Below, one piece after another: positions 35,512 through 64,000 of a stretch of DNA of 64,000 nt. Made by a program: the position numbers and the translations under genes. The stretch lies in the NCBI GenBank assembly GCA_963700635.1, contig CAVOYH010000003.1, positions 352,001 through 416,000 of the forward strand, read 5' to 3'. Within the stretch, counting starts at the first letter, position 1; each line of letters begins with the position of its first letter. The notes under the pieces are model-generated. The model made no database searches and was not told where the DNA came from. It was given only the letters and a program-made list of their open reading frames with translations. This stretch comes from an uncultured Bacteroidota bacterium (GTDB lineage Bacteria > Bacteroidota > Ignavibacteria > UBA10030 > UBA6906).

Positions 35512-35516
35512 GGGCT

Positions 35517-38500: not shown

Positions 38501-38915
38501 CGCTGGTTTTTGCGGCGCGCACCGCGGCAGTGGTGCCGAGAGCGGTATTGTGTTTTGCGTAGATCCACCCCGACCAGTTGCCGGATGCATCAAGGGTCAC
38601 GACCGGCTGGTTTGAAGCGGAGTACGCAGTTCCATTGCTCCAGGCACTCCCCGTCCACATATACTCAATGGTTATCGAAGAATAGACTTTGACATACGCC
38701 TGCGCATTCGCTGCAGAAGACCATCCCTGGATCCGGACGAAGACAGCGTATGGCGTTCCGACGGATCCTGTCCCGCCGCCGCCGGCAACCGAACCGGGGA
38801 AGACGGCTGCAGTAATAGACTGAGCGGCTGCTGGCCCAATATTGGCAACGGATAGTAGCATCACAACGAAGATGAGTAATCGGATGTATCGTATATTATT
38901 GCGTCTAATCGTCAT
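35517..38915 (-). CDS. Secreted multidomain protein: OB folds, FN3-like domain, tandem PLD/Nuc-type domains, T9SS type A CTD
   Basis: Two HxKxxxxD motifs (HNKFVVVD...TGSWN; HHKYAVID...TGSHN); OB motifs VTVRGIVT, YIQD.TGG, ELYEGLLVRV; QNYPNPFN CTD. Confidence 0.85.
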   Translation of the reverse strand: MTIRRNNIRYIRLLIFVVMLLSVANIGPAAAQSITAAVFPGSVAGGGGTGSVGTPYAVFVRIQGWSSAANAQAYVKVYSSITIEYMWTGSAWSNGTAYSASNQPVVTLDASGNWSGWIYAKHNTALGTTAAVRAAKTSDTNIRLTSDARTFSVLEMQGSGNGGWIMRPSSPAVNKVLLAYAGGVIVGSYRTEENGIAEGFTYAPGGFKIAVPAGTIDSLVSQNDNGSHDQTFRGPWSVTAGQETDATVGGGSAGRGSIFLSPTTLSGGIAHDVDVAVYGETPYIISTVRIRVPPTWVWSHLPADVLQQGGGTPAVTVAGDTIVVSGMTLSGADSMLLTLKNVVPADTTLLFPFSSSTGTHSDSVFAITTQPSIFVYSIPLPISVVKENDLNGVPLRNNTLVTVRGIVTVANEFGGPSYIQDNTGGMAVYGSSFSTAVATGDEVLVSGLVQPFSGLTEIVNPRLHRTTGSGNIVEPLIVTAADIRRDGAGGVELYEGLLVRVNNVRFGGTGAWASGTNYVLVDATDSTQVRIDNNTNLVGTPIPTSPSDIIGVVGQFVSSPPYIGGYQLMPRSITDLMVTGPGITSVPLETDLTSSSFRIRWTTGLPGTSRLRYGKTASFELGILGTDTAVSIQHSLPVTGLDAASIYHVQVFSVAGGDTSTAGTIVVSTTSPERATGVIRVYFNKSVFSALAPGDPASGNQNFVALLTGRIAAARYSVDAAFYNLSGTPGPGTDIAQALIAARQRGVKVRVISEQDNRGNAPFNSLVAAGVPLITDTFDPVNAGAGLMHNKFVVVDAYGGVPESVWVWTGSWNPSLPGTNDDYQNAIEIQDPALAGAYTVEFNEMWGSATEVPDAAASRFGARKTDNTPHHFVIGGRPVACYFSPSDHATARIIDAIATANHSFHFALLTFTRSDIAGAILQRQAPGFSLHGVMDNRDDSGSRYDYLVSQGVDIRLKTGSGLLHHKYAVIDAGFPASQPMVITGSHNWSNAAENTNNENTLIIEDAGLAMHYVQEFAARYYQFGGSDSIRAHLDRVSSELPSSTVLLQNYPNPFNSTTTVGLRVQGSGATPPRVILKVFDLLGREVATLVDAPLTAGEYRVSFDASTLASGMYLYVMRVGQYQEARTMLLMR

Positions 38916-48752: not shown

Positions 48753-51488
48753 TTACAATTGATAGCCAATCATGAAATATGCCATGAATGGTCCCTGCTG
48801 TACGGGTTGATTCGAAAGGCCGGGTTGGAAATAGAACGCTTTTCCCATTCCTACTACGGCAGGACCTATAGGCGTTGCAAGGGCGAGTTCCAGCCCAACT
48901 CCGTGCAGGAGCGAACTGAATTTTATCTCTTCCGGCACCGCAGAAATGGTACCAAAATCGTATCGCGCCCGGATATACGTGTCAAAAAGCCACCGGATTG
49001 GCAGCATGTATCTCAGTTCGATGTTCACAAGGATTAATTGTCTCCCGCGACGGTCGTCTTCCCGCAATCCGTAAAACGAATCACGCCCTCCCATCCGGAA
49101 CTGTTGAGCGAGCGGCATAGTCTCATCGGCGAAACCGATGGTAAACTTTGGATGAAAGGTGAAGTGTTCTCCCAGGCTGGCGTAACTCTCATACATCACC
49201 TGCAGTGCGTTGAAGCCCACATCACTTCCCAGACTTTCCAGGCAGAACTCATACGACATCCGGAATCCGACTCCGGATGTCGGAAACGGGTAGGCGTTTT
49301 TTGTATCGACGATGGTTGCCAGCCGGACCATCGCAAGATGGTACCGTGCACCCAGGGCCGGCACATTGTCCAGATTCACCAGCCGGACATTCTGTACAAT
49401 CAGTTCAGCGGTTGCGTTGCCAAGGCGTTCCAGCAGACTCCCGAACGAGAGGCTGACCCCGTACCGTATGTCACGATATTCGCCAATACTCTCACGTTCC
49501 CAGCGGTTTGGATGTGAAAGTGAACTGTTCACGTAGAGGTACGAATCGTATGACCGGTGGAACGCGCTTATCCCCAGAGTAAGATACGTTTCGAAAAGAC
49601 GTTGCGCGCTGAATTCCAGCTTCACGTCCCCGTTACGCTGTCCCCCCGAAACCGTGAGTCCCAGCTGCATCCCCGTCCCGCGGAAATTTTCATCCCGGAT
49701 GTCCACCAGTCCCTGCAGATGGCGTTCATCATCTGCGCGTAGCCCCATGCGGACAAGTTGCGAGGGCCGTTCTTTGATGCGAATCGTAAGCACGATCTCA
49801 TCCGTCAGCGATGTGATCTCCAGATACACGTACTCGAACAACGATGTTCCGTTGATTTGCGAAAGTCCACGGCGCGCCTGTTCCAGCTGGAACACATCGC
49901 CCGGCACCATGGGAAATTCCTGAAGAAGAAAGGCATCCTGTGTACGCACTCCCCCCTCTACCTCAATTCTGCCGACAACACCCTCATTCATGGTGATCGC
50001 AAGGACCCCGGAGCGTTCATCGAGGTTGAGTGATTCCACGTGAGCCAGGGAGACGCCCCGCTTCCGGTACAGCCTGATGAGATTTTCCCTGGCGAGGGTC
50101 GTCGCGTCGTGGTTCATCACCTTCCCGATGAGCGGCTGGAACACGGACTGCAACTCTGCGGAAGAAACGAGGCGATTTCCAGAAAAGACCACCCGGGAGA
50201 GCAGGGGGTTGGTTCTGGCATGCACCCACAACCGGGATCCCTCTGGCCCGGTCGTTACATCTGCCCAGACGCTATCATAGTTCCCCGTGGCATACACTGC
50301 GCCCAGAAATTGTTCCAGGTCATAGAGCGGAACCGGTCCGACCGTAAACGGCTGCGTGAGGGCCTCCCACAAAGAATCCGGGATCGCCGCATCGTCACGG
50401 TTACATGTGACCGGCGAGCGCAGAACTTCTCCCCCTGCAGCCGCAGCAATACTGTCTGTCAGCCGTTCGTACCGCTTCAGAATATCCGCCAGATGTTGTT
50501 CCGCCGTTTTATCCCCGATCCGGATGAGCGAATCAAGTCCTGCAAATGACGACGAAAGGTGACGCCCGATATCCGGCGTGATAATGATATCTCCGCCTGA
50601 CATCTGACGTTCGTTTACCTGCTTCATCATGATGCCCATGATCTGATCTGCAGTCTGCCAGGGGGCATTCATTTCATCCGCGCGCCGCAGTCCGCTTGCG
50701 GAATTAACAACAATAATAAGGTCACACCCTGCAGCACGCGCCACATCAACAGGAATATTGGATACCAGGCCCCCGTCCACGAGCTGCATGCTGTCTTTTT
50801 CGATAGGCGTAAACAGCAACGGAACTGTTGCGCTCGCGCGAAGCGCTTCAGCCAGCGAGCCATTCTGTAGAACAACCCGTTTCCCCGACACCAGATCCGT
50901 TGCCATGGCGCGGAAGGGTATTTTGAGATGATCAAAATCGGGGAATGGGTAATAGAGCGACTGAAGCATGCGGGCGCTGAGAAAATCTGTGAGGCGCTGC
51001 CCGGTGGATACCGCCGAAGGGAAGACCGGCTGCAATCCTTCAAATCGCACAGCAATAAAACTCCGGTCGTCGAAAATCTTCTGGTCCACAAACAACTGCG
51101 AACGCTGTATTTCGTCCCCGAGGCTGAGCACCTCATCCCAGTCCGTTGACACCGCGAGGGATTCAAGATCCTGTGTGGTGTATCCGGCGGCATACAGACC
51201 ACCGACAATCGCACCCATGCTCGTCGCGGCAATAAAATCAATGGGGATCCCGTTCCTCTCGAGGGATCGCAGGACACCAATCTGAGCAACGCCCCGGGCT
51301 CCACCACCGCTCAGGACAAGTCCGACTTTCGGGCGCTGAAGAGTATGTTGCGTGAGAAGACTTCGTTGTACCACGAAGGGAGGACGGAAGCGTGGATGGA
51401 GCACAAAGGAGGAATCAGCGGCGCAGAGGGCCTGTACACCGAACAACACCAGAACGGGGAGTACCATCATCCGGCGACGGCGCTTCAT
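48753..51488 (-). CDS. Patatin-like phospholipase with POTRA domains and Omp85/BamA barrel (PlpD-like)
   Basis: LVLSGGGARG, ATSMG, DGG; POTRA-like FSGN/VEGG; FRMGG..FYG, TPIGP, terminal GYQL. Alternative start 51542. Confidence 0.88.
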   Translation of the reverse strand: MKRRRRMMVLPVLVLFGVQALCAADSSFVLHPRFRPPFVVQRSLLTQHTLQRPKVGLVLSGGGARGVAQIGVLRSLERNGIPIDFIAATSMGAIVGGLYAAGYTTQDLESLAVSTDWDEVLSLGDEIQRSQLFVDQKIFDDRSFIAVRFEGLQPVFPSAVSTGQRLTDFLSARMLQSLYYPFPDFDHLKIPFRAMATDLVSGKRVVLQNGSLAEALRASATVPLLFTPIEKDSMQLVDGGLVSNIPVDVARAAGCDLIIVVNSASGLRRADEMNAPWQTADQIMGIMMKQVNERQMSGGDIIITPDIGRHLSSSFAGLDSLIRIGDKTAEQHLADILKRYERLTDSIAAAAGGEVLRSPVTCNRDDAAIPDSLWEALTQPFTVGPVPLYDLEQFLGAVYATGNYDSVWADVTTGPEGSRLWVHARTNPLLSRVVFSGNRLVSSAELQSVFQPLIGKVMNHDATTLARENLIRLYRKRGVSLAHVESLNLDERSGVLAITMNEGVVGRIEVEGGVRTQDAFLLQEFPMVPGDVFQLEQARRGLSQINGTSLFEYVYLEITSLTDEIVLTIRIKERPSQLVRMGLRADDERHLQGLVDIRDENFRGTGMQLGLTVSGGQRNGDVKLEFSAQRLFETYLTLGISAFHRSYDSYLYVNSSLSHPNRWERESIGEYRDIRYGVSLSFGSLLERLGNATAELIVQNVRLVNLDNVPALGARYHLAMVRLATIVDTKNAYPFPTSGVGFRMSYEFCLESLGSDVGFNALQVMYESYASLGEHFTFHPKFTIGFADETMPLAQQFRMGGRDSFYGLREDDRRGRQLILVNIELRYMLPIRWLFDTYIRARYDFGTISAVPEEIKFSSLLHGVGLELALATPIGPAVVGMGKAFYFQPGLSNQPVQQGPFMAYFMIGYQL

Positions 51489-51528
51489 CAGGACACCTCG
51501 CTCAGTCCCTCGCATGTATGCAGCGGAA

Positions 51529-52626
51529 CTACCTCGGCACATCTGTGCTCAGCCGGTAGCGTAAAATTATCCCCTGTTCCTGATCAAGCACGTACAGGAC
51601 TTTTTCGAAGAATGCCAATCCGGAAGGACGGCGCATTTGTCCATCCGAGCGAACGCGACCGAATGATTCCCCGCGCACAACACCGCGGCTGTTGAACTTG
51701 AACACACTGTCCAATCCTGCATCGGCAATAAACACATCCCTGCGCGAAGGATCAATGGCAACAGCCTTCGGGTAGACAAAACGGTTCGGACGGATAAAGT
51801 CAGCCGTCCGGTCCTCGAATCGTGCAGGATCAAACCGCGGCAGCCAACCCTGGAAATCACTTGTGCTTGAATAGACCATCCACAAAGCGCCGTATGCCAC
51901 GCCATCGGATGACTGGACCAGGACAAAATCATTACTGTTCGGGAATGCGGTTATCGATGTTGGATGGTTGATGTTGGCAATCCCGGTTCCGCTGCCGGTG
52001 ACAAAAGCGGGTAGTGGCGTAATAAACTTGTCGTTCTTGTCAAAGTACAGCACACGCGCGTCAGGGTCGATAAAACTTGAATTATCCTGTCCGTCTCTGA
52101 CGGCAAGGTAACTGTTGTCGCTTAATACCGTAATCCCGGGAAACCGTCTCCGGGGATGTGCAAGCTCGCGCCAAACGGTATCGATACGGGCCACTTCCAG
52201 ACGGTGGGCGGAATCCGCGGCCCCCGATACAAGATGAATACGAAACAGTGCACCAACCGTGTCACCGTTGGCAGCCACAAATTCTCCGCCAACAAGGAGA
52301 TCCAGACGGCTGTCCTGGCCGATTGCCACCGGACGGAGCATGGTACGCGTGCTCAATACACCGCCGGCCCTGTTGAGCATGACCAACCGATTCGCACGCG
52401 TGTCAGCCACGTACAGCAATTGGTCCCTGCCCAGCAGCAATCCTTCCGGCCCGGTGAAACCGCCGAACGGCGGCGTGATCGCGACGTATGCTGTGTCAAG
52501 CAGAGAGGCTGGCTGTTGCGGCAGCGTGGAGAGATCCATAGGAGAATCGCAGCCGGCAGTCCAAACCACGAGGCTCGAGATCAGGATAACGATTGAGCGC
52601 TGTATGGTGTCTCGAGAATGTCGCAT
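51529..52626 (-). CDS. Lipoprotein with NHL-like beta-propeller repeats
   Basis: Lipobox TAGC; LYVADTRANR, VFIADAGLD, PSGLAF...LYVLD. Confidence 0.8.
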   Translation of the reverse strand: MRHSRDTIQRSIVILISSLVVWTAGCDSPMDLSTLPQQPASLLDTAYVAITPPFGGFTGPEGLLLGRDQLLYVADTRANRLVMLNRAGGVLSTRTMLRPVAIGQDSRLDLLVGGEFVAANGDTVGALFRIHLVSGAADSAHRLEVARIDTVWRELAHPRRRFPGITVLSDNSYLAVRDGQDNSSFIDPDARVLYFDKNDKFITPLPAFVTGSGTGIANINHPTSITAFPNSNDFVLVQSSDGVAYGALWMVYSSTSDFQGWLPRFDPARFEDRTADFIRPNRFVYPKAVAIDPSRRDVFIADAGLDSVFKFNSRGVVRGESFGRVRSDGQMRRPSGLAFFEKVLYVLDQEQGIILRYRLSTDVPR

Positions 52627-53708
52627 CAGTAGGTAAAGGTCACGGAAAATCGGTGAAGGGCGCCCAGCAGACTGTACTGTGAGTACGCATAGTCTGCGGT
52701 AATCGTACTTACGCCGGTCGAAACCCGGAAGCCGGCGCCGAGCATAAAGTTCTCTTCAGAGGTCTCATCAGCTGCAAGCAGTTTCTGACCGATTGTGCGT
52801 TTGATCCCCCCGCGCACAAAAAGCGTATTATGCCACGCATATTCCATACCAAGCCGGACATTCTCCGCATTGTCATTCGGGTGGTTCAATTGAACGGATG
52901 TCGTTAATCGCTGGTCTTCCGACAGGATCGGATCCATTGCGAAGCCGAGTTTGAAGAGCGTCGGCAGGGAGAACGATTGGAATTCGGTCACCGAAACGCC
53001 GCCCGCCGTTGCCACCGTCCCCTGAGGGGCAACATCCGACCCGAAGTTGCTGATCACCACGGCGAACCGTGCGGTTCCCAGTCCCGTCCAGTAATACGTT
53101 CCCAGATCGACCATCACCGACCGCATCCTTAACATATCCAGGGTCTCTTCGACGTAACGGACGGTCGCTCCAAAGCTGAACTGTTCAGTCATTTTCCGGG
53201 CATAGGTCACTCCAATCCCGATATCCCCGAAGCTGAAATACCGCCCGGTGCCGAGTGGCTGGGTCTCCGTCGTGATCTCCATGTCCTGCATGTGGAGGGA
53301 TGTCAGGGACAGCCCGATCGCGTCTGCATCAGTAAGATGGTAGATGGCGCCAAGGTATTCATGCCGGATTTCTGCAACATACTCGGTATGTGCAACAAAG
53401 ACCTGATCTTCCTCGGTCTGTACAAGACCTGCCGGATTCCAGAAGAGACTCGACGCATCGTCAGCGACAGCCACGAATGCCTCGCCCATAGCCACACCGC
53501 GCGCGCCAACACCAATCTTAAGGAATTGGAACGCTGAGATCCCGGCCCGCTGCCCGCCGAGATTTGGTACAAGTTGCGCCTCTGCGGAGACCACGCCGAG
53601 ACAACTCATAAGCGCGAACAGGAGTATTGCCGGTCCTGCGTGCTCCCGGCACGGGCGACCGGTTCGTCGCGCCCTATCATGTTTCCGTATGGAGTGTTCT
53701 CTTGCCAT
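52626..53708 (-). CDS. PorV/PorQ family outer-membrane barrel
   Basis: FLKIGVGARGVAMGEAFVA..DDASSLFWNPAGL signature; C-terminal HRFSVTFTY. Confidence 0.88.
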   Translation of the reverse strand: MAREHSIRKHDRARRTGRPCREHAGPAILLFALMSCLGVVSAEAQLVPNLGGQRAGISAFQFLKIGVGARGVAMGEAFVAVADDASSLFWNPAGLVQTEEDQVFVAHTEYVAEIRHEYLGAIYHLTDADAIGLSLTSLHMQDMEITTETQPLGTGRYFSFGDIGIGVTYARKMTEQFSFGATVRYVEETLDMLRMRSVMVDLGTYYWTGLGTARFAVVISNFGSDVAPQGTVATAGGVSVTEFQSFSLPTLFKLGFAMDPILSEDQRLTTSVQLNHPNDNAENVRLGMEYAWHNTLFVRGGIKRTIGQKLLAADETSEENFMLGAGFRVSTGVSTITADYAYSQYSLLGALHRFSVTFTY

Positions 53709-53711
53709 CGG

Positions 53712-56579
53712 TTAAAACCTGAACGAAATACTGCCGCGTATGGTACGGGGGTTCAGATACCGTGCCGGGCTGTACGGGAACGGCGACACACCCCCCGTCA
53801 ATTGCGGATAAAGCGGGTCGTTGTAGCCTGACGGTGTCGCATCGCCGTATTCATAGGCTCGTCCCGTGACGGGGTTGACGATCTGCGAGTTCCGCGTATC
53901 CAACAGATTCTGTATCTCAATACTCGCCACAAGTTTTCCGAATCCCAGTGGAATGGACTTTTCAAGATTCACGTCGATATAGAACCACGGCTCGCCGATC
54001 CCGCCATTCACGTTGTCCAGATCCGCGATGTACTGTGGCCGGCCGGTGCTGGGATCGTCGCCCGTGTACAGCTGGGGCGTGTACCGCTTGCCGGACTGAT
54101 AAAACACGCGCACGAAGGCATTCCAATCGTCCAGAAATCCCGGAGCCACACCAAACAACGGCTGATCCTTTGGGACCGAAAAATTTAACGTCATGGAAAT
54201 CTGAACGGGGCGATCCCAGATAAGATAGTTTTCACGGATGTTCTCGGGCTCCCCCTGCTGGATGCGGATCACATTCTCGTTGGGCGCGGAACTCTTGCCC
54301 GTGGCAATGGAATAGGATCCTGCCACGCCACCCCGGAACCAGTTGCCGAACCGTGTCTTGTATTCCACCTCAATACCGCGCACGCGACCGTAGTCGGAGT
54401 TGAGATACGTTGAATAGTACTGTGCTCCGCCCACAGAATTGAGCCGCAGAACAGTCTTCTCCGTGATGTAGTCAAATATGTCCTTGTAGAATGCTGTGAT
54501 GGTGAGAACATCACTGCCGGACAACTGATTCCGGAGGCCGAGTTCATACGCAACCGTGGTTTCGGGATTCAGATTCGGGTTTCCCACCGGCAGAGACGAT
54601 CGCACAGAACTCTGGTTGAGCTTTGCGTACACAAACTGCGGACGCGGGAGCTTGGAGAAATGGCCGTACGAGAAGAACAGGGTCTGGTTATCGGAAACGG
54701 GATGGGAGATACCGAGCCGCGGGCTCAGTCGTGCCTTATACCGGCGCCCGAAGAGGGACACGGTGTTGTCCTTGTACTCGTTACGAAGCGCCGATGAGAT
54801 GATCAGGGTGGACGACGTGTCTTCCGCGATATCATCGACGAATTTGCCGGGGGCCCAGTAGTCCAGCCGCAGGCCAAAATTCAGCAACATCCCGCTCAAC
54901 GCAACATTGTCCTGCGCGTAAAACGATCCCTGCAACGGCTGTACGCTGTACACATCATGGTCAAATCCAAGCGGCTTCACCCAGGGTCGATAAATGTCAA
55001 CCATCTGCATATCCTGAAACCGGACCTCAAAGCCGGCCTTGAATTTGTTTTTCTCCGAAAAGAAATTCGTCAGATCCCCCTTGAGCGTGTACTCTGTCAG
55101 GAAATGATCGCGCCAGGATGTCGGTGAACCAAGATCATAGAACCCGTCGCCCGGAACAACTCCAACGGTGTCGCGGCCGAGGTTGTAATAGGTGATCGGA
55201 TACGTCACAATATCCTGCGGCTCAAGGTATGCGCTAAATTCCTTCCCGTTTGCATCACCGCGGATATGAGCCGTGTACCGGCTCAGTTTGACCTCATAGA
55301 AGGTCTGCGTGCTCAGCGTGTGCGTCCAGGAGAATGAATGCTGGATATTAATCTGGGTGAACGTTTGCGCACTGTCAGGGATAAACTGAAACAGATACTG
55401 ATACCCCGGATTCGGCTCAATATATTCCAGGGTCGCCTGGATTGCCTGCGTGTTCTGGTCGATCACCACGGACTGGTTATAGGCATACGCAAGTTTCATG
55501 GTCGGATCCGGTTTCCAGGTGACCTTGCTGAGCCAGGAATAGTTGTTGGAGCGCCGTGGTGCCCACCGCTTGCCCCCGGCGATGGATGAATACAGGCCAT
55601 TGGGGGCTTTGACCACCCATCCGCTTGGCCGGTAATCTCCTCCTACCGTTTCAACCCAGCGGGTGAAACCATCGGTGAGGTTCGCATAGAGCGACCCGAA
55701 AAAGCTGACAGTCCCCGGAATCTCAAGACCGATGGCCGGCAACACAAAGGTGGTCAAGGGCTCAGGACCACTGAGTGTTGCGTCATAGATGTCGGTATTC
55801 CAGTTTGAGCGGGTGTCATTGTTGAATCCGAAATGATCAGTTTTGTATCCCAGCGAGCCGCTGTAACGGTCCGACCCTTCACGTGTGGTAATATTGACTA
55901 TACCCGATGTCGCCTGGCCGTATTCTGCATTATAACCGCCGGTGATCACTTCCACTTCCTGGATCGAAGACGGACTCAGCTGAAGGCCGAACCCTGAGCC
56001 GGCCATGGGATCCTGAATCGAGATGCCATCCAGCAGGAATGCATTCTCGTGCGTGCGGCCGCCCCGGATGTGGATTTCGTTATCGGCCATCACCACACCG
56101 GGTTGCATGGCGACAACAGCCTGCACGTTCTGCACGGCAGCCGCCTGAATGTCCGCCTGCTGCACATTCCGGCGGCTGGCAGTTTCTTCTATATCGAACA
56201 GCGGCCGTTCACCGATGACCACAATATCCTGACCCAGGGTCAGCACGGTCTCTTCCAGCTTTGCACGGATGGTGGTCGTTTGTCCGGCTTCCACCTTCAC
56301 ATTCGTAAACTTCACCTGTTTGTAGCCCAGCAGCGACACCTCAACGACATAGGCCCCGGGATTAATCGATTCGATGCGGACGTTTCCCTCGATGTCAGTT
56401 GTTCCGCCATAGTACGTCCCCTTGACCACCACATTGGCGCCGGGAAGCCCTTCCCCTGTCCCGGACTCAGTCACCGTCCCGACAATCCGGCCTGTGGTCT
56501 GGGCAGAGACCCGGGCGGGAATCATCAGGAGCGCCGCGACAAGCAGGCAAAGGGTTCCTTGTTGCACAACCTTCTTCAT
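53712..56579 (-). CDS. TonB-dependent receptor
   Basis: TGEGLPGANV; HIRGGR..E; ITGGYNAEYGQATSGIVNI; SPRLG; NPNLNPE; terminal FRF. Confidence 0.92.
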   Translation of the reverse strand: MKKVVQQGTLCLLVAALLMIPARVSAQTTGRIVGTVTESGTGEGLPGANVVVKGTYYGGTTDIEGNVRIESINPGAYVVEVSLLGYKQVKFTNVKVEAGQTTTIRAKLEETVLTLGQDIVVIGERPLFDIEETASRRNVQQADIQAAAVQNVQAVVAMQPGVVMADNEIHIRGGRTHENAFLLDGISIQDPMAGSGFGLQLSPSSIQEVEVITGGYNAEYGQATSGIVNITTREGSDRYSGSLGYKTDHFGFNNDTRSNWNTDIYDATLSGPEPLTTFVLPAIGLEIPGTVSFFGSLYANLTDGFTRWVETVGGDYRPSGWVVKAPNGLYSSIAGGKRWAPRRSNNYSWLSKVTWKPDPTMKLAYAYNQSVVIDQNTQAIQATLEYIEPNPGYQYLFQFIPDSAQTFTQINIQHSFSWTHTLSTQTFYEVKLSRYTAHIRGDANGKEFSAYLEPQDIVTYPITYYNLGRDTVGVVPGDGFYDLGSPTSWRDHFLTEYTLKGDLTNFFSEKNKFKAGFEVRFQDMQMVDIYRPWVKPLGFDHDVYSVQPLQGSFYAQDNVALSGMLLNFGLRLDYWAPGKFVDDIAEDTSSTLIISSALRNEYKDNTVSLFGRRYKARLSPRLGISHPVSDNQTLFFSYGHFSKLPRPQFVYAKLNQSSVRSSLPVGNPNLNPETTVAYELGLRNQLSGSDVLTITAFYKDIFDYITEKTVLRLNSVGGAQYYSTYLNSDYGRVRGIEVEYKTRFGNWFRGGVAGSYSIATGKSSAPNENVIRIQQGEPENIRENYLIWDRPVQISMTLNFSVPKDQPLFGVAPGFLDDWNAFVRVFYQSGKRYTPQLYTGDDPSTGRPQYIADLDNVNGGIGEPWFYIDVNLEKSIPLGFGKLVASIEIQNLLDTRNSQIVNPVTGRAYEYGDATPSGYNDPLYPQLTGGVSPFPYSPARYLNPRTIRGSISFRF

Positions 56580-56610
56580 AAGGAAAAGACCGTCCTGTAG
56601 ATTGTTGTCC

Positions 56611-58431
56611 TTAGAAACGCGCCCTGTTTATCACCTGGGCCGGGCTGAATTGGACGAGCGCCTTGTCAAAAAAGGCGCCCAGTCCGCGCGGGTTTCCCTC
56701 TGTTGTATTGTTGAGAAGATGTAATGGGAGACCCACAAAGATAATAGTGTTCTGTCCATCAATGACCGCCAGATTGGGCGAGCCCAGATACCGCTGCGGG
56801 ATCCGCGCGTCCGCTTGCATACGATAAATGTATCGCGCATCCGAGCGGCGGTAGATCGGACGCATAAAGACCGAATGGATCACGGGTGACGTATTAAAGG
56901 CAAGCTGCGGATAGACCGACGACAGATCACTGCTGTCCGCATACACGACGTAGTTTGCCGGTATCCTCGAGTCGCCCACAACGGCCGGTGGCGGTGCCGG
57001 ACGTGTCGGAGAAAGATCAACGCTGCTCACGCTGTCAATCGGTGCGAAGTCCCGCAAGGCCCCGCGCGGATCACTCGTGTTCAGAAACATCGTCGAGAAT
57101 ATCACCCGCCCGCCGTTCTGAAGATACGGGAAAATGGACAGCTGCGCGACGCCGAGACTGGGCACCTGATCGGTGTACCAGAGCACGTAATCATACAGAA
57201 GAAAGGTCTGAATCAGAGCGGGGTCCACAAATTGAGGAACCAATCGGCCGTACCGCCCCGCCTCCTTGTCCGCCGCTGTTACACCAAGGGTTATGTCCAG
57301 CTGGTCTACCTGCGTGAATGCACCGCCGGGCACGGAAGCAAGTGCACTGCTGTACGTCGTCCGGGCAAGCTGAGCATCGAAGTTTGTATAGTCACTCACC
57401 AGAAGCAACTTCGCACGTGGTTTGCGGACGTACCACCGGTCTGTTCCCGACGGAAGACGGAGCGGAAGACTGTATTCACCTGCAACGTCCCGCGCCTGGA
57501 CAAAAACAGCATTGTCAGCGTCCAGACGGAGATTCGGCACCTGGCCGATAAGACGCCTGCCGAGAAACGGTCCGCTGTACAGATCAGCCGTCACCGTAGC
57601 ACCCGCCGCGTCACTCCGCGAACGGGGCACAACCATCGTCACGATCGTATCACGGAGCGCCACCGTCACCCATTGCCCGGTGGCACCGGTGTCGTTGAGC
57701 GCAATACGATACGACGCAAGTGTGTTATCCCCGTCCGAATCGGAACCCTTAAATCCAATGGTGATCACCGTGTATGTCGTATCGGGGAGCCGCTGGACTA
57801 TGGTGGCGTCTTTGGGATTGGGGAGCAAACCGATTGTCGGCGGTGTGTTGCGAATAGGGAACGTCAGGACTGCCCCGACCGGGTCAACCGCTCCGGTGAG
57901 CGTTTCAAGACGCTGATCGGCGGCGTCAAACACCCCGTTGTCATTCTTGTCCCAGAACGGGAACGGTAACAAACGGACGGGGCTGTGCTCCGGGAGCCCC
58001 GGGAACGCATCATCCACAGCCCGCACCACGACGGCAAACCGCCTGAAGAGCGTGTCCAGCGGAAAAAGAAACGTTGAATCGTTGCGGGTCACCCAAACAT
58101 ACCGAAGCGTGTCCGGCACAGGCAGTGTCGTGACATTCCCGGTGACCACCTTGAACGAAAAGAGGTAGCCGCGAATGAGGCCGTCCGGCGACTCGCCCCA
58201 CCAGCGCAGATGTGTCCGGCTCACGCCAACACGCACCTCAGCGTCGGGAAACAGCCACAAAAATGTTTGTGGGGGCCTCCCGGGAACCGGCTTGTCCGTC
58301 ACACTCTCACGGCAACCGGAGAGCTGAAGCGCAAAAAGCGCCACAACCGCAAACGATATAGAATAGTATTTCAGCACGATTCTCCGAATCCTGTCAGGCC
58401 ACGCTTCCGGCGTTGCCGGAGCGCGGCTCAA
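56611..58431 (-). CDS. Hypothetical lipoprotein with Ig/FN3-like segments
   Basis: Lipobox LSGC; PPQT...W.GESPDG and NTPP...GSDSDG repeats. A GTG at 58377 with GGAG RBS may be the true start. Confidence 0.75.
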   Translation of the reverse strand: MSRAPATPEAWPDRIRRIVLKYYSISFAVVALFALQLSGCRESVTDKPVPGRPPQTFLWLFPDAEVRVGVSRTHLRWWGESPDGLIRGYLFSFKVVTGNVTTLPVPDTLRYVWVTRNDSTFLFPLDTLFRRFAVVVRAVDDAFPGLPEHSPVRLLPFPFWDKNDNGVFDAADQRLETLTGAVDPVGAVLTFPIRNTPPTIGLLPNPKDATIVQRLPDTTYTVITIGFKGSDSDGDNTLASYRIALNDTGATGQWVTVALRDTIVTMVVPRSRSDAAGATVTADLYSGPFLGRRLIGQVPNLRLDADNAVFVQARDVAGEYSLPLRLPSGTDRWYVRKPRAKLLLVSDYTNFDAQLARTTYSSALASVPGGAFTQVDQLDITLGVTAADKEAGRYGRLVPQFVDPALIQTFLLYDYVLWYTDQVPSLGVAQLSIFPYLQNGGRVIFSTMFLNTSDPRGALRDFAPIDSVSSVDLSPTRPAPPPAVVGDSRIPANYVVYADSSDLSSVYPQLAFNTSPVIHSVFMRPIYRRSDARYIYRMQADARIPQRYLGSPNLAVIDGQNTIIFVGLPLHLLNNTTEGNPRGLGAFFDKALVQFSPAQVINRARF

Positions 58432-58453
58432 TCAGGATATCACTTTTTCCATA

Positions 58454-60706
58454 CTATTTCACCAGCATCATCTTCTTCACTGCTCTGAACGAGCCGCTTT
58501 CAACGCGATAAAAATACACGCCGCTCGGAAGGGACGATGCATTAAACCGGACCGTATGCCTGCCGGCGGCCTGCTGGCCGTTGAACAACGTCGCAATTTC
58601 CTGCCCGATAAGATTGTACACACGTATTGTGGTCAGTCCGGCAGAAGGCAGCAAATACTGAATTGTTGTCGCAGGATTGAACGGATTCGGGTAGTTCTGC
58701 TCCAGCGCATAGGCCACTGGTGTTGTTCCGGGCAGATCCTGTTCGACGCCGGTCACAACTCCGAAGAAATCAGCGTCGGTGCGCGGCACAAACTTGTACT
58801 GATTGAAGCTGTAGTACACAATTCCGGTCAGAGCGCCGATCTTTGTCCCCACGGTGAGGATGGTCTTCCCTGAAGCGGAATCCGCGGCAATATTCGAAAA
58901 GTTGTATTTCCCGCTTCGCTGGACCACGATGCCGCCACTTCCGTCATTGACGGTGAACTCCGTGGGATCAGAGAATGTGGGATTGAGGTCGGTCACGGTC
59001 ACGTTGATAAACCGTACCAGCATCCCTTCATACATCTCTGCGCTTGCCACTCCGTTGCCGACACTGAGCGTGCTCGTGGTGCGGACCACAGGCTCAGGCC
59101 CCGGGTTGCCGCCGGATACCTTTACCACCGAGGTGATGTTTCCCAGGCGGGTAACGTCGAACTGTTCCTGGACGGTTCCGGTCACTATGATACTGTCGCC
59201 GTTCCGCAATGCGGCCATCTGCCGCTGGGCCGCGGTATCGGACGTCGTCAGCCAGAGGCCGTTCCAGGGTTGATTCGTGGACTGCATGTACCACGCGTTG
59301 GTGCTCCCTGTCGTCACGGGCGAAAGTGATACGTTTGCGGTGTCACCGGTGACAATTCCCGACAGGCTCAGGACCGCGCCCAGATATGGACTCCGGCCGT
59401 TTATGTATGGCGTATACTGGACGTCCTGTATGGCAAGAGGGCGAAGCAGTGATGTATAGAAGAAGAACCCCTTGGACGTGTCCGATGCAAGGCCGCCACT
59501 TGTGGAAGAATTGGCGAGCCGCACGGTCTGGCCGAAGGAATCAGAGACAGCAATAAAATAACGCACCACGACATTGGTTTGCTGCGACGGGATCACGCCC
59601 AGATAGGTGGTATCCGAAGCCTGATACGTCATCGCGACAGTCTGGAATGCCGCGTAATTGACACTATACAACAGCGATACGGTTTTGGGTGTGGACCCGT
59701 TTGGCTGTTGTGTTACGCGCACGCTGACCTTGGCCGTCGAGTCCGGAGATACCACAACCGGGTTCCGGCGATGGGAAGCAATGAGCGGGGGTGTAGGTGC
59801 GGCTGCAAAGACGATATCCCCGCGGTACATCGGCGAAATGCGGTAGCCACGCGGTCCCTCACTGCCGGATGCTGTTGTAATATATCCCCGGATCGTGTCG
59901 ATCCGGGTACCGTTGCCGATCGCCGCATAGATCCTCGACCAGGCCGTGTCCGCAGGCCAAGGGGGAAGCTGGGACGTCCCGTGTCCGAGCGTGAAATAAC
60001 GGGACCAGTCGTAATCCGAAATCTCGTTCCCTGAGGCGTCCACCATGCTGAATGTTCCCCGGGGAATGTTCACCTTGTTATTCAACGTGACATTATGGAA
60101 CTCCACATACATCCCCTCGAAGGGTTCACCACTTGCGACCTGGACTTTCCCCGTTGAGAACACTCCGGTATAAAAGTCGCCGATGTTTTTGACGATCGGC
60201 TTGGGAAGGGGCGCCGCACCGATAATGCTGATGGGGTTTCCGGCAACAGGTTCGATCTGCGACGCGCTAGTTCCTCTGGACGTGGGAAATTCACTTATCC
60301 AGCCGACCAGCGTAATGATATCGCCGGCTTCCACATTCAGGAACCCGTCTGTTTTAAGCTGTGTGCTGTCCGCAATATTGGCACGAAGGAGAATCCCGCC
60401 CCAATCGGAGGCCACCGCGGCGGTGTCGTACAGCAGCATCGTCCAGATGTCCGCCGTGTACGTGATCACACCGGGGGGCACGGCCACAAGCGCGGTCACG
60501 CGCACCGTATCACCCATGTACGGGGAGGTCTGCAATGTCCATCGCGGCTGCGTTGAGTTCGCGGCAAAATTTGTGATCCCGTCCGCAACGACGAGGGATT
60601 CTGCAGGAACCTGCTGGAGCTGACGGACGGTGACGTCCGGATACTGCGCCAGCGCCGAAGACACCGCGGCCGCCAGCAGGACAACAGATAGAAAAATTCG
60701 GTTCAT
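58454..60706 (-). CDS. T9SS-secreted protein with repeated OB-fold-like modules and a type A CTD
   Basis: Signal peptide; SPYMGDTV/SPYLGAV, EPFEGMYV/EMYEGMLV; QNYPNPFNP...SGVYFYR...KKMMLVK; AAGGAGAGG RBS. Confidence 0.85.
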   Translation of the reverse strand: MNRIFLSVVLLAAAVSSALAQYPDVTVRQLQQVPAESLVVADGITNFAANSTQPRWTLQTSPYMGDTVRVTALVAVPPGVITYTADIWTMLLYDTAAVASDWGGILLRANIADSTQLKTDGFLNVEAGDIITLVGWISEFPTSRGTSASQIEPVAGNPISIIGAAPLPKPIVKNIGDFYTGVFSTGKVQVASGEPFEGMYVEFHNVTLNNKVNIPRGTFSMVDASGNEISDYDWSRYFTLGHGTSQLPPWPADTAWSRIYAAIGNGTRIDTIRGYITTASGSEGPRGYRISPMYRGDIVFAAAPTPPLIASHRRNPVVVSPDSTAKVSVRVTQQPNGSTPKTVSLLYSVNYAAFQTVAMTYQASDTTYLGVIPSQQTNVVVRYFIAVSDSFGQTVRLANSSTSGGLASDTSKGFFFYTSLLRPLAIQDVQYTPYINGRSPYLGAVLSLSGIVTGDTANVSLSPVTTGSTNAWYMQSTNQPWNGLWLTTSDTAAQRQMAALRNGDSIIVTGTVQEQFDVTRLGNITSVVKVSGGNPGPEPVVRTTSTLSVGNGVASAEMYEGMLVRFINVTVTDLNPTFSDPTEFTVNDGSGGIVVQRSGKYNFSNIAADSASGKTILTVGTKIGALTGIVYYSFNQYKFVPRTDADFFGVVTGVEQDLPGTTPVAYALEQNYPNPFNPATTIQYLLPSAGLTTIRVYNLIGQEIATLFNGQQAAGRHTVRFNASSLPSGVYFYRVESGSFRAVKKMMLVK

Positions 60707-60781
60707 GGTAACCTCTCCTTAATGATGTTTAAATACACACAGCCAAGCCGCAGGCACCACGTACATCCGTCGCAGCTGATA

Positions 60782-62926
60782 TCATTTGATGATCAAAAAC
60801 TTCCCTGTTTGCACATTTCCTGTATCCGTGTCTTTCACACTGAACAGGTATAATCCCGTAGCAATGGCCTGGTCGAACTTCGTAATCAGGTCCCAGGCAT
60901 GCTCCCCGCCGGAAAACTGGATGGGCACGTCACTACCGCCGAATTGGCGGAACCACTGAATATCCCTGCCCGTATAGGTTGCGGCATCATGCGATAATTC
61001 AGCCACGATATCGCCGGCCAGCGTATAGACGCGGATGGTGCAACGCTGCGGGAGATTTGTAAAATAGATCTTGCGGGTCCGTTCTCCTGAAGCATCCCAC
61101 GCTGCTTGCGCGTAGTACGGGTTCGGATACACGCCTACCTTCTGCGTACCGGAGTTGGGAGATGCACCGGAGACAATCCTCACAATCACCATCTTGCTCT
61201 CCAGTGAGCTTACACCCGCTGCGGAATCTCCCTGATCAAACGACGAAACACCATACACATACTGCCACCCGCTGAGGTGGCTCACGGTGACGTCCTTGGG
61301 CGGGAAGCGGTACCAGTAGGTCACGGTGTCACCGGCAAACTGTTTCGGTTGGTCCAGAAGGATCTTCCCGAAGCCGGTGTTGTATCCAATCTCGTTGTCG
61401 GCCCTGTCAAACTCGCCGACCCGGGGAAGTGTCAACAGCAGATTTGCCGGATCCGTGAAATCGGAACCGGCATTGGATCGGTAGATACGGTATCCCTCAA
61501 AATCCAGCTTCCGTGATATCGGATCGATGGAAGTTTCTGCGCTGGTCATGTCCCAGTAGAGGACCACGTTCTGGTTCTCCAGTTCGGCGCGAACGACGGG
61601 CGGTTTCGGGGGCTGTGGAAGCCGGTAATGATCCAGAATACCGTTGCCGTTCAGGTCTTCACCGGGATCAAGTCTGTTATTGCCGTTCAGGTCCTCACCG
61701 TCATACGCCTGCTGACACAACGCTGCATTCGAAACGAGCGTCTTGCGCTGATCACGCGTGTCAAGCCGGGCCGCCTGCGTTCCGGCCTTCCGCGCGCACA
61801 CGACGCCGAAGACGACCGACACTGAATCCCCGGGCTTGAGAGTGACAAATGGACCGGTGGAGAGTAATGTGGTCATGTTGTCAGCCTGGGTGCGCAGGGG
61901 ATCGATTTTGTTCTGCGGGAGAGACGTGACAAGCCGTTCATACCGGCTGCGCGCACCCAGAATATTCTCTGCATCGTCCTGTGGCGAAAAATACTCTGCA
62001 TCCCCGCTCGAGCTGCTGTACCGCCAGGCATTGTAGTACGTTCGCCCGCCAAGATGACCGAGGGAATCTATCCCCCGCGGAAATGGCACTGCTCCCAGGA
62101 GTTTGATGCCGACATACGAATCCGCCGCGGGGGGGGTGGGAATACCGTCAAAATCGAAGGTGTATCCCATGCGCAGGGAATCCAGATATCCGTTTGCGCC
62201 ATGGTTAAAGAATCCGGGTGTCCCCGGACGCACATTGTTGGTATTCCGCACAACGTTGTTGGTCCAGAGACCAACATACACGGAGTCGAGGGTATCGGCA
62301 CCGGCATTATAGATCGTGTAGTTCAGAATCACAAAAAAATCGGCAAACGGAAAATTCCAGGCATAACTTTCCTGATGCACCCGGATCCCGAGCGGGGTAG
62401 ATTGATCCGGAGCAGAACTGTCACGCACCACGAAATCGTGGTAATCCGCCAAAAAATCCTGATGGCTCACAGCATGCTGATCGAAGTACGGAGATTCCGA
62501 AAGGGTGGAACGCTGCACGACTGATGAGCCGGCCAGGGACAAATACTCGATACCTTTTCCGGTCGTGGTAGAAACCCGGTCGCTTGACCCCGTGGAAACA
62601 TGGATTTGTCCGGTACGGCGTGAGAGCGCTCCTACCCACAACGCGCCCTGATACATATGTTCTACGCGGGATCCCCGTGGATATTCACAGGATGGCTGGC
62701 TCGGCCAGTAGGCATTCCGTGTGCCGATTGTGCCGAAGTTGGTGACCGTGAGCCCCAGTGAGCCGGCCGTCGTGGCGTTTCTGTCCGTGTCCTCAGTCCG
62801 CTTTGCAAGCTCCTGAGAAGACGCCATGCTGCCCGCACTACTCATCAAGAGCAGCACCGAGAAAAGCACGGCTGGGACAGTAATAGGAAGAATGTGCGGA
62901 CAGCGCATGAATTCGGGATCATTCAA
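60782..62926 (-). CDS. Secreted hypothetical protein with a variant CTD (PNPY...WDL...GLY...KF.IIK) and Ca-binding-like repeats
   Basis: Hydrophobic N-terminus; TNFG, EYP.GS, FEGYRIYRS FN3-like segment; GEDLNGN twice. Start uncertain (62926 or 62908). Confidence 0.8.
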   Translation of the reverse strand: MNDPEFMRCPHILPITVPAVLFSVLLLMSSAGSMASSQELAKRTEDTDRNATTAGSLGLTVTNFGTIGTRNAYWPSQPSCEYPRGSRVEHMYQGALWVGALSRRTGQIHVSTGSSDRVSTTTGKGIEYLSLAGSSVVQRSTLSESPYFDQHAVSHQDFLADYHDFVVRDSSAPDQSTPLGIRVHQESYAWNFPFADFFVILNYTIYNAGADTLDSVYVGLWTNNVVRNTNNVRPGTPGFFNHGANGYLDSLRMGYTFDFDGIPTPPAADSYVGIKLLGAVPFPRGIDSLGHLGGRTYYNAWRYSSSSGDAEYFSPQDDAENILGARSRYERLVTSLPQNKIDPLRTQADNMTTLLSTGPFVTLKPGDSVSVVFGVVCARKAGTQAARLDTRDQRKTLVSNAALCQQAYDGEDLNGNNRLDPGEDLNGNGILDHYRLPQPPKPPVVRAELENQNVVLYWDMTSAETSIDPISRKLDFEGYRIYRSNAGSDFTDPANLLLTLPRVGEFDRADNEIGYNTGFGKILLDQPKQFAGDTVTYWYRFPPKDVTVSHLSGWQYVYGVSSFDQGDSAAGVSSLESKMVIVRIVSGASPNSGTQKVGVYPNPYYAQAAWDASGERTRKIYFTNLPQRCTIRVYTLAGDIVAELSHDAATYTGRDIQWFRQFGGSDVPIQFSGGEHAWDLITKFDQAIATGLYLFSVKDTDTGNVQTGKFLIIK

Positions 62927-62967
62927 GGGTGGAACGGGGGTGAAATCGCGTGAAGAGTATGTTAATC

Positions 62968-62996
62968 AATATATTTTTAATGCGACGGAAAGTCAA
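62968..62996 (-). promoter_or_regulatory. Sigma70-type promoter at the head of the 48.7-62.9 kb cluster
   Basis: Minus-strand TTGACT(62996-91)-N17-TATATT(62973-68) in an AT-rich intergenic region. Confidence 0.6.
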
Positions 62997-63041: not shown

Positions 63042-64000
63042 ATGACGTTCCTCAATCCCCTAGTGTTGTTTGGACTCGCAGCGGCTGCCATCCCGATTCT
63101 GCTCCACCTGCTGAATCTTCGCAAACTCAAGACAGTTCAATTCAGCACACTGCGGTTCCTTCATGAGATCCAGCGCACACGCATGCGAAGAATCCGGCTC
63201 CGGCAGTGGATTCTGCTGGTGGTGCGTACCCTGCTTATCCTCTTTCTTGTCCTTGCATTTTCCCGGCCCACGCTCAAAGGCTCGCTCGCCGGTCTGGGCT
63301 CATCTACCGCCCGGTCCACAATCATCATCCTTGTTGATGATTCCCCCAGCATGGGAATACGTAACACGGAAGGAATCATCTTTGACCAGGCCCGTACAAC
63401 GATCCTGCAGATTGCCGGACTCGCAAAACCCGGTGATGATCTTCACATTCTGCGTCTTTCCGGATCAGCAGCCGGTGATTCCTCGGGAACCTTCTGGTCT
63501 GCTGAAGGAGCGATAAAGACTGCGCACTCTATGTCCCTGTCCAATCGATCCTCCAGGTACGACCACCTTCTCCGGCGCGCACTGGATATTGCAGAAAAAT
63601 CTTCAACGGCCAATCGGGAAATCTATCTGCTGACGGATCTCCAGGGGACACAGTTTACAACGGCTCTGGAAAAGGCGGACTCGTCCGCACGGACCCAGCA
63701 GAACGTGCGCGTCTTTGTCGTGGCATATGATCAGATGAATCTGGCGAATGCAGCCGTGACTTCGTGTACAATTGAGAGCCGGATCCTTGCGCAAAACAGG
63801 CCCATGACGATTAACGCCACCGTGAGGAATTACGGTGACCAGCCGATGCAGAACAGCGTTGTAAGTCTTTATCTTGATGGGACCCGCGTTGCGCAGCAGA
63901 CTGTCGACCTTGCCTCCCGTGGCTCCGCGGCGGTAACGCTGACCGCAATTCCGCATCGGCGGGGAATTCTGGGAGGACGTATTCGTATCGAAGACGACAT
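63042..64000 (+). CDS. BatA domain plus vWA domain protein; 3'-truncated by the window edge
   Basis: MTFLNP..L.GL....IPILLHL....FSTLRFL...AFSRP BatA motif; DDSPSM MIDAS; LLTDLQ. Confidence 0.88.
   Translation, partial: MTFLNPLVLFGLAAAAIPILLHLLNLRKLKTVQFSTLRFLHEIQRTRMRRIRLRQWILLVVRTLLILFLVLAFSRPTLKGSLAGLGSSTARSTIIILVDDSPSMGIRNTEGIIFDQARTTILQIAGLAKPGDDLHILRLSGSAAGDSSGTFWSAEGAIKTAHSMSLSNRSSRYDHLLRRALDIAEKSSTANREIYLLTDLQGTQFTTALEKADSSARTQQNVRVFVVAYDQMNLANAAVTSCTIESRILAQNRPMTINATVRNYGDQPMQNSVVSLYLDGTRVAQQTVDLASRGSAAVTLTAIPHRRGILGGRIRIEDD

Follow-up and report, generated by a model that had tools for sequence, protein, structure and literature searches.

A repeated cassette of a TonB-dependent transporter, a protein with a variant T9SS-type tail and a PorV/PorQ-family barrel in an Ignavibacteria genome

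Introduction

Almost everything understood about TonB-dependent uptake by a transporter with a partner at the cell surface comes from the SusC/SusD (RagA/RagB) pairs of Bacteroidia. In these pairs, and in the utilisomes of Bacteroidota polysaccharide utilization loci, one operon encodes a transporter, its surface-exposed partner and additional surface lipoproteins, and a genome carries many diverged copies. Here we analyze a group of seven genes (p1 to p7) from an uncultured bacterium of the class Ignavibacteria (assembly GCA_963700635.1), in which a TonB-dependent transporter (p4) is encoded with a putatively secreted partner protein (p1) and a barrel of the PorV/PorQ family (p5). The genes lie in a 64,000-nucleotide stretch, referred to below as the window (C3:352001-416000; coordinates of this form give contig and position in the window's own genome). 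The source genome comprises 4.2 Mb in 6 contigs and is estimated to be 97% complete with 6.7% contamination; it has no recognizable SusD and carries 14 sets of transporter, partner and barrel.

Barrels that hold other proteins at the cell surface are known from several settings. Passages of PMC10202324 describe how, in Porphyromonas gingivalis, the proteins PorU and PorZ are exported by the T9SS (type IX secretion system), keep their C-terminal domains (CTDs) and stay bound to the PorV/PorQ-family barrels PorV and PorQ, respectively. The same passages describe type-B CTD cargo such as SprB of Flavobacterium johnsoniae, for which a dedicated PorP/SprF-like barrel gene lies beside each cargo gene and the tail class is cargo-specific. 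In the Bacteroides BAM complex, as portrayed in part of PMC12578637, the FadL/PorV-like 14-strand barrel BamG uses extracellular loops to hold the surface protein BamH beside a large barrel. Our literature search, which covered sources outside subscription journals, found no account in which PorV-like barrels are linked to TonB-dependent transporters. Both the parts and the principle of tethering are known; their combination appears to be undescribed in those sources.

The locus in the window is a rearranged and enlarged member of a repeated cassette that consists of a transporter, a partner with a variant C-terminal domain (vCTD) and a private PorV/PorQ-family barrel. We consider it probable that p5 holds p1, once exported by the T9SS, at the cell surface beside p4 for nutrient import. 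If the barrel does hold the partner there, the T9SS would assemble a nutrient importer rather than just secrete enzymes, it would become clear what the many annotated 'PorV/PorQ family' paralogues are for, and polymer capture by large groups of soil, sediment and marine bacteria would gain a testable model. To the general cassette the window adds a rearranged five-gene subtype, a census of paralogues that includes the true PorV, PorQ and PorU, a cross-tabulation of SusD and SprA against the variant tail, and a controlled co-fold.

Results and discussion

Every strong variant-tail protein of the genome is encoded with a transporter and a barrel

All seven genes are encoded head to tail on the minus strand (48753-62926), as defined by the open reading frame (ORF) list and by family scans. 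From p1 to p5 the intergenic gaps are 75, 22, 31 and 3 bp, followed by overlaps of 1 bp between p5 and p6 and of 14 bp between p6 and p7. An earlier annotation of this DNA, made without database searches (the sequence-only reading), had described seven co-oriented genes with short gaps, a barrel gene 3 bp after the transporter gene and a propeller lipoprotein gene overlapping it by 1 bp; our coordinates and family scans agree with this layout and with the labels given to the genes. It had further proposed two CTD cargo proteins. Both p1 and p2 do carry tails, but the tails belong to two different families.

The gene for the partner p1 occupies 60782-62926 on the minus strand and encodes 714 amino acids when read from a TTG start (the database form has 695). 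Its tail, delimited at the extreme C-terminus by family alignments, is encoded at 60785-61144 on the same strand. In blastp searches the last ~120 residues of p1 recur at the C-termini of otherwise diverse proteins of this genome. These tails share the motifs V.PNPY, a variable insert, F.NLP..C.I.IYT..G, W.L, G.Y and a terminal GK..IIK, which reads GKF.IIK in p1; the p1 tail has an additional ~20-residue insert relative to the family. A hidden Markov model (HMM) of the vCTD, built from 11 tails of the genome including that of p1, identifies 14 strong members at 46.9-116.5 bits, with p1 at 107.8 bits. Below these the scores drop to 34 bits, and type-A tails, among them that of p2 at 20 bits, appear among the weaker hits.

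All 14 strong vCTD proteins of the genome are encoded with a transporter and a PorV-like barrel. In 13 of these copies the order is transporter, vCTD protein, barrel, and three of the 13 came to light only through the HMM, their tails not having been in the training set. The window locus is the fourteenth copy and the only one whose tailed protein has moved upstream. The transporter p4 (53712-56579, minus strand, 955 amino acids) has CarboxypepD_reg, Plug (49.9 bits, cut-off 23.9) and TonB_dep_Rec_b-barrel (86.1 bits, cut-off 27) domains, and among its full-length paralogues in the genome the transporters of the other triads rank highest. With its order of partner, p2, p3, transporter and barrel, the window locus is therefore a variant of the triad, and this variant order is itself conserved (see below). 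Because partner and barrel remain in one operon though apart, together with two conserved lipoproteins, we treat the locus as a distinct subtype.

The linkage between tail and barrel extends beyond this genome. When the best vCTD match was taken from each of 30 genomes in a sample of the phylum, one of them the window's own, a PorV-like gene lay immediately 3' on the same strand in 30 of 30; this check took the top-scoring loci, which are of the canonical type with a partner of ~1,100 residues. Among 1.84 billion representative proteins, the tail profile finds 6,664 at E <= 1e-10 and 27,175 at E <= 0.001, and the single-stretch matches among those listed all end at the C-terminus of the protein.

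p1 has no type-A sorting-domain match at E <= 0.01. In 10 vCTDs, Pfam returns only sub-threshold matches: to CHU_C in six of the ten (best E 0.0018), to FlgD_ig in five and to Por_Secre_tail in three (best E 0.0016). None of the ten reaches the cut-off of the type-B sorting domain (CHU_C, PF13585), and p1's own tail has no CHU_C match. Since the vCTD matches both the type-A and the type-B families only below threshold, we regard it as a third relative of the T9SS sorting domains. The p1 tail also weakly matches the C-terminus of PorZ (E 1.2e-4).

Several observations concern individual copies of the cassette or the tail profile itself. Some copies are broken up into two or three ORFs (C3:1657085, C3:1800920, C4:60512-67536). 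The triads at C3:1651474-1658642 and C6:160060-167677 are near-duplicates with barrels 85.8% identical, and the C3 partner is split into three ORFs; possible origins of this pair are a recent duplication followed by decay, frameshifts from sequencing, or the 6.7% contamination. Given the likeness of these two barrels, the triad count is perhaps one too high. At C3:152697-170911 two triads with barrels 51% identical face each other on opposite strands, their barrel genes innermost and their transporter genes outermost, with a type-A-CTD protein encoded between them. A few giant proteins match the tail profile through 7-27 internal immunoglobulin-like repeats and are a separate matter; those of 1,500-3,900 amino acids (P0241-P0245, P0248 and P0250) do so through 9-27 stretches. 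The immunoglobulin-like fold of the tail thus also serves as a tandem repeat unit, unrelated to C-terminal sorting.

The p5 barrel is not the housekeeping PorV

The barrel p5 (52626-53708, minus strand, 360 amino acids) matches the PorV/PorQ family model NF033709 with 221.1 bits (cut-off 90) over model positions 2-325 of 326. It falls below the equivalog models for PorV (NF033710, 88.3 bits against 250), PorQ (NF033711, 95 against 220) and PorV2 (93.6 against 325). It is a barrel of the 14-strand type, and a search with a profile built from 41 orthologues hits the solved PorV of F. johnsoniae (6h3i_F, E 4e-12).

We then counted the PorV-family genes of the genome. Eighteen genes exceed the family cut-off: one PorV, one PorQ, 14 that share an operon with genes for a TonB-dependent transporter and a vCTD protein, and two others that have neither neighbor (C5:195126 and C3:814458). 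The true PorV (C2:143765-144772) is the only gene of the genome that passes the PorV equivalog (255.9 bits, cut-off 250), and the true PorU lies directly upstream of it (972 bits, cut-off 420). Likewise, the true PorQ (C1:348926-349810) is the only gene passing the PorQ equivalog (227.3 bits, cut-off 220). SprA is also present, ~11 kb from the true PorV. Because a separate true PorV and PorQ exist and p5 passes neither model, p5 is not the housekeeping PorV, and the sequence-only reading was right to treat it as locus-specific.

The T9SS island that houses the true PorV (C2:139462-161861) encodes porU, porV, an M6-like inactivated metalloprotease (T9SS-dependent, 791 bits), a TolB-like propeller and SprA.

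A maximum-likelihood tree of 17 PorV-family barrels of the genome, which excludes C4:66763 (truncated) and C3:889784 (weak), does not settle the deep forks, with 8 of 14 inner branches open. The nearest relatives of p5 are triad barrels (36% identity to C3:163377), in no supported clade, and PorV and PorQ sit on long branches that meet.

Co-folding predicts an interface between p5 and the p1 tail

To ask whether the barrel and the variant tail might fit one another, as the sequence-only reading had suggested for a PorV-CTD pair, we co-folded mature p5 (residues 46-360) and the 125 C-terminal residues of p1, supplying for each chain an alignment of 41 rows drawn from the same loci. The pair scored an ipSAE of 0.87 in three of three runs, and the best of three controls scored 0.00. 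The ipSAE mark is reached by 116 of 157 solved complexes and by 2 of 215 mismatched pairs, counts that are only rough with custom alignments. At least 92% of contacts are common to the runs, with a pLDDT of 71-77 for the partner.

In the predicted complex the tail contributes its last seven residues as well as the PNPY strand and the IYTLAGD and QAIATGLY segments, and the barrel contributes the invariant N-terminal QRAGISAFQFLK stretch together with several loops. Of eight residues invariant in the paralogous tails of the genome, five fall in interface segments, including PNP, the G after IYT and the G of G.Y. The model thus supports binding of the p1 tail by p5, though it does not show it.

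p1 is a short member of a partner family

p1 has no Pfam family match, and among the 11 paralogous partners no Pfam family exceeds its cut-off, the sole hit at E <= 0.001 being DUF4815 with 18.8 bits (cut-off 30). A search with p1 yields 1,919 homologues at E <= 1e-5 (among 8,000 candidates scored), and each name displayed for the 120 listed is 'hypothetical protein'.

p1 is composed of an N-terminal beta-sandwich, an Asp/Asn-rich stretch resembling calcium-binding sequences, a fibronectin-III (FnIII)-like part and the vCTD. Its predicted model is almost all beta (mean pLDDT 67, pTM 0.58; the other four models reach 49-53). In Foldseek comparisons the first ~330 residues resemble sandwich domains found at the N-terminus of GH94 phosphorylases and of GH116 enzymes (probability 1.0, query TM 0.2-0.24), and the remainder resembles FnIII arrays.

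By blastp, p1 has 10 paralogues in the genome (E 3e-24 to 3e-6). Comparing a profile of 32 p1 orthologues with six partners of the genome, 960-1,280 residues long, hhalign gives a match of 99.8% probability (E 1.7e-30) across 401 columns. The match takes in the N-terminal sandwich, a stretch of helix, the insert rich in Asp/Asn and the FnIII-like part with 'YWD...DFEGYRIYRS', making p1 homologous to the N-terminal ~670 residues of the canonical ~1,100-residue partners. It has no counterpart to their ~400-residue distal region and runs straight into the tail. These alignments place p1 in the partner family as a short version.

A five-gene core is conserved among related loci

To determine which genes belong to the locus type, we collected 77 loci, anchored on p3, from metagenome-assembled genomes (MAGs) labeled Ignavibacteria, Ignavibacteriota or Bacteroidota. 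ORFs, called crudely from the first start after a stop, were scored with the seven proteins, and each gene was counted among the loci whose contig leaves room for it. p1 is found upstream in 58 of 58 such loci, the transporter in 67 of 68 (the exception being L058), the barrel in 58 of 60 (exceptions L034 and L058) and p6 after the barrel in 55 of 56 (exception L034). The order p1, p3, transporter, barrel, p6 is kept, so the synteny of transporter, PorV-like barrel and variant-CTD protein for which the sequence-only reading had proposed a check is conserved in these related Ignavibacteria loci. Over their full length, the related proteins are roughly 51-85% (p1), 58-90% (transporter), 56-77% (barrel), 38-80% (p3) and 39-82% (p6) identical to those of the window. 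p2 is found upstream of p3 in 45 of 65 loci with room (missing in 20), and p7 in 23 of 44 (missing in 21). From these counts the core consists of p1, p3, transporter, barrel and p6, with p2 and p7 as accessories; on their distribution, the latter two are dispensable neighbors.

L058 looks like a contig break inside p3, because the remainder of the locus lies on L049 from the same MAG; after the p3 fragment, L058 runs for ~5 kb without any locus gene. Separately, the p3 ORF is longer where p2 is missing (median 893 amino acids in 19 scored loci, versus 589.5 in 30 loci with p2). The additional ~300 residues fall inside the tblastn match; the 19 loci are L037, L038, L059, L062 and 15 others.

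The conserved lipoprotein p3 is encoded at 56611-58431 on the minus strand (606 amino acids; lipobox LSGC, read by eye). It has no Pfam family match and no paralogue in the genome. Its predicted model (pLDDT 72) places FnIII-like strands at the N-terminus, followed by an alpha/beta domain. For residues 319-582, VIA finds GATase1/ThuA-like and GH42-type trimerization domains (Z 12.8-11, root-mean-square deviation 3.1-4.0, 175-209 residues aligned), and Foldseek agrees. The sole invariant Cys across 32 p3 orthologues is the lipobox Cys22; amidotransferase activity is therefore unlikely, there being no invariant catalytic cysteine besides it.

The second conserved lipoprotein, p6 (51529-52626, minus strand, 365 amino acids), has the lipobox TAGC, again read by eye, and is a predicted beta-propeller. 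It contains NHL repeats (27.3 bits, cut-off 20), its best solved relative by sequence is the NHL propeller of PknD (E 3e-7), and its nearest Atlas clusters have NHL in 94-100% of members. It, too, is without a paralogue in the genome.

Among the accessories, p2 (58454-60706, minus strand, 750 amino acids) is a putatively secreted protein that, like p1, has an ordinary signal peptide by eye. It carries a type-A T9SS sorting domain at residues 672-747 (PF18962, 45 bits, cut-off 27; TIGR04183, 44.3 bits, cut-off 23). Other matches are weak: the N-terminal part of ExeM/NucH (42.8 bits, cut-off 300), DUF5689 and CBM56. Its Atlas neighbors, which we treat as leads only, have a tRNA_anti-codon OB fold in 13-19% of members or DUF5689 in 75%. 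A role involving extracellular DNA or glycans is conceivable for this OB-like protein.

p7 (48753-51542, minus strand, 929 amino acids) combines Patatin (107.2 bits), POTRA (42.9), POTRA_2 (27.6) and Omp85 (86.6) in one polypeptide. Type Vd autotransporters of the PlpD kind have an N-terminal patatin domain, a POTRA domain and an Omp85-type barrel. We take p7 to have a type Vd autotransporter-like architecture, from which it differs in having two POTRA matches; its link to the locus is lineage-restricted, given its presence in only 23 of the 44 loci with room.

SusD, SprA and the variant tail across the phylum

The sequence-only reading had found no recognizable SusD at the locus. The Pfam models PF07980 and PF14322 have no match in the seven proteins or in the whole genome (97% complete), and the Bacteroides positive control was detected. 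Nor does either lipoprotein appear to resemble SusD: the p3 model consists mostly of strands plus the alpha/beta domain, unlike the all-helical TPR-like SusD, and p6 is an NHL propeller by sequence. Among the matches listed by Foldseek for p3 and p1 and by VIA for p3, which barely cover the N-terminal half of p3, there is no SusD chain. p4 is likewise not a SusC/RagA protein by NCBIfam, matching TIGR04056 with 65.6 bits against a cut-off of 368, and over residues 32-238 only.

We also tabulated these features across a sample of 201 genomes of the phylum, in which related genomes are not independent samples. At E <= 1e-8 the tail profile matches in 133 genomes. Nineteen of these, with best E values of 1e-9 to 1e-11, may be cross-matches to type-A tails, so that 114 genomes remain, which is also the count with a best tail at E <= 1e-17. 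SusD (PF07980) is found in 111 of the 201 genomes and SprA in 162. Within the window's own class, the tail occurs in 48 of 48 other genomes, in 47 of them strongly and in up to 20 copies; SusD occurs in 12 of these 48, with one or two copies each. All 39 genomes without SprA belong to one family (f19; 1.8-2.8 Mb), in which SusD and the vCTD are likewise found in 0 of 39 genomes each; this is consistent with T9SS dependence of the tailed proteins.

Comparison with described systems

With respect to SusC/SusD, the likeness lies in the organization described above, with 14 diverged copies here. The differences are that p4 fails the SusC/RagA model and that its partner is beta-rich, is not a lipoprotein and has no SusD match; the partner here is presumably held by a protein barrel rather than by a lipid anchor.

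The pairs PorU-PorV and PorZ-PorQ, in which a T9SS-exported protein stays bound through its CTD to a PorV/PorQ-family barrel, are the parallel for the proposed tethering. In this genome porU directly precedes porV, just as partner precedes barrel, and the p1 tail has its weak match to PorZ. In contrast to these pairs, p5 scores too low for either the PorV or the PorQ equivalog, its partner is not PorU or PorZ, and the pair occurs 14-fold and is always linked to a TonB-dependent transporter. Retention of the tail, described for those pairs, is presumed here.

The cassette resembles SprB-SprF in having one barrel per cargo protein, and in the weak CHU_C matches of six of ten vCTDs. It differs in that the barrel is of the PorV/PorQ family, the tail is below the type-B threshold and the link is to nutrient transporters, not gliding adhesins. 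BamG-BamH differs in turn in that the neighboring barrel there is BamA rather than a TonB-dependent transporter, and in that BamH is a lipoprotein without a T9SS tail.

A model for p1 display and its alternatives

Together, these findings lead us to favor a model in which Sec would take p1 across the inner membrane and the T9SS, with SprA, PorU, PorV and PorQ all encoded elsewhere in the genome, would take it across the outer membrane. Its variant tail would remain uncleaved and dock on the extracellular face of p5, like PorU on PorV and PorZ on PorQ. Docking would fix p1 at the surface beside p4, whose gene is presumably translationally coupled to that of p5. There, p1 may capture or present a nutrient for TonB-driven import, in a genome in which no SusD was found. 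p3, with its FnIII and ThuA-like parts, and the NHL propeller p6 would be conserved additional surface components of this locus type. What the data themselves provide is the gene content, the paralogue counts, the linkage, the synteny, the homology of p1 with the canonical partners and a predicted interface between barrel and tail; from these we infer T9SS export, tail retention, contact with the transporter, the role in uptake and a substrate. The cassette is widespread, and it may do the job that SusC/SusD does in Bacteroides.

This model departs in part from the sequence-only reading, in which a locus-specific PorV paralogue tethers a CTD-bearing binding protein next to the transporter, replacing SusD. 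The tethering of a CTD protein by such a paralogue gains support, with the variant tail of p1 as the cognate one; p2, with its type-A tail, is missing from 20 of 65 loci with room. The placing of p1 beside the transporter, and in SusD's stead, is suggested by gene linkage alone. On these grounds we regard the earlier proposal as only partly supported.

Several points weigh against our model. F. johnsoniae PorV with a bound type-A sorting domain has already been solved (8glj and sister entries), and the high ipSAE may therefore reflect likeness to such PorV-CTD complexes rather than binding by this particular pair or retention of the tail; p5 could also bind the type-A tail of p2. Confidence in the p1 model is only moderate (pLDDT 67). 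The partner gene does not adjoin the barrel gene in the window locus, unlike in the other 13 copies. The association of SprA with the vCTD is weak, because one SprA-less family amounts to a single independent observation. In another family (f27), SusD occurs in 33 of 33 genomes and the vCTD in 27 of 33; as the two co-occur in some families, the triad is not simply a substitute for SusD. Finally, the locus contains no CAZyme or peptidase and is flanked by a short-chain dehydrogenase gene and a BatA-like gene, giving no clue to the substrate; neither the Atlas neighbors of p2 nor Pfam scans of the flanking genes offer anything firm on this point.

The most serious alternative is that the PorV-like barrel acts as a dedicated but transient T9SS shuttle, which picks up the partner at the SprA translocon, much as PorV picks up ordinary cargo, and passes it on. 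The partner would then go free or be attached at another site, and the transporter would be linked to it by shared regulation only. Passages of PMC12578637 and PMC10202324 portray PorV as a shuttle, and the predicted barrel-tail interface fits a transient complex as well as a stable one. Moreover, type-A cargo far outnumbers the barrels, with at least 100 proteins of the genome matching the tail of p2, which implies that barrels dedicated to the vCTD cargo class reflect some special handling of it. What a shuttle fails to explain is why 14 of 14 barrels are encoded with a transporter of one subfamily, and why barrel and transporter are separated by 3 bp here even though the cargo gene has moved away. 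Cognate PorV-like barrels have furthermore been proposed, in a passage of PMC10202324, to protect tails from cleavage and to keep their cargo. We consider such a shuttle unlikely, albeit the strongest competitor.

It is also conceivable, though in our estimation improbable, that p5 serves as a channel of the FadL type through which a hydrophobic or amphipathic compound passes, in parallel to the transporter, with the variant tail serving only as a secretion signal. PorV-family barrels are homologues of FadL, as stated in part of PMC12578637; p5 has a weak Toluene_X/FadL match below the cut-off (27.3 bits against 29.7), and a patatin-type lipase gene lies 3' of the locus here. However, 21 of the 44 related loci with room lack this gene, as do the genome's other 13 triads, and neither the strict one-to-one linkage of barrel and vCTD nor the predicted interface would be expected of a plain channel. 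Least probable is a BamG-like scaffold in which p5 would work with p7 in outer-membrane protein assembly or secretion and hold a surface protein in the way that BamG holds BamH: the Bacteroides 14-stranded FadL-like BamG binds BamA and a surface protein via loops (described in part of PMC12578637) and an Omp85-family gene overlaps the operon end, but p7 has a patatin passenger, is type Vd-like rather than BamA and is missing in the same 21 of 44 loci, with no Omp85 or patatin neighbor in any of the other 13 triads.

Returning to the model in which p5 tethers p1 beside p4, a more elaborate version can be envisaged, which we put forward tentatively and think somewhat doubtful as a whole. The conserved N-terminal beta-sandwich of the partner would act as a lid or substrate gate of the transporter and the barrel as a stable third subunit. 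The resulting three-barrel-and-lid importer, assembled by the T9SS, would be the main transporter format of Ignavibacteria and of other SusD-poor relatives of Bacteroidia, and the five-gene version, with two conserved lipoproteins, would be a complete SusD-free utilisome for one substrate.

Operon boundaries and surrounding genes

The sequence-only reading had placed one promoter ahead of the seven genes. A site does exist upstream of p1, a sigma-70-like TTGACT-17-TATATT at 62996-62968 on the minus strand with 10 of 12 matches to consensus, but such sites show no excess over shuffled sequence: 9 were found in the region against 8.9 +/- 2.6 in shuffles. Because the count equals the shuffle expectation, the match carries no statistical weight and is a candidate only. 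A terminator scan of the region returned 9 terminator-like sites against 14.8 expected. The promoter and terminator scans give no usable signal for operon boundaries.

Upstream of p1, a divergent gene at 63042-63998 on the plus strand encodes a BatA-N/VWA/CARDB protein and extends past the end of the window. Other flanking genes, as identified by Pfam scan, encode a DUF72 protein and the short-chain dehydrogenase. Elsewhere, the window encodes another TonB-dependent transporter at ~39238-42147 on the plus strand and two type-A-CTD proteins at ~33070-38915 on the minus strand.

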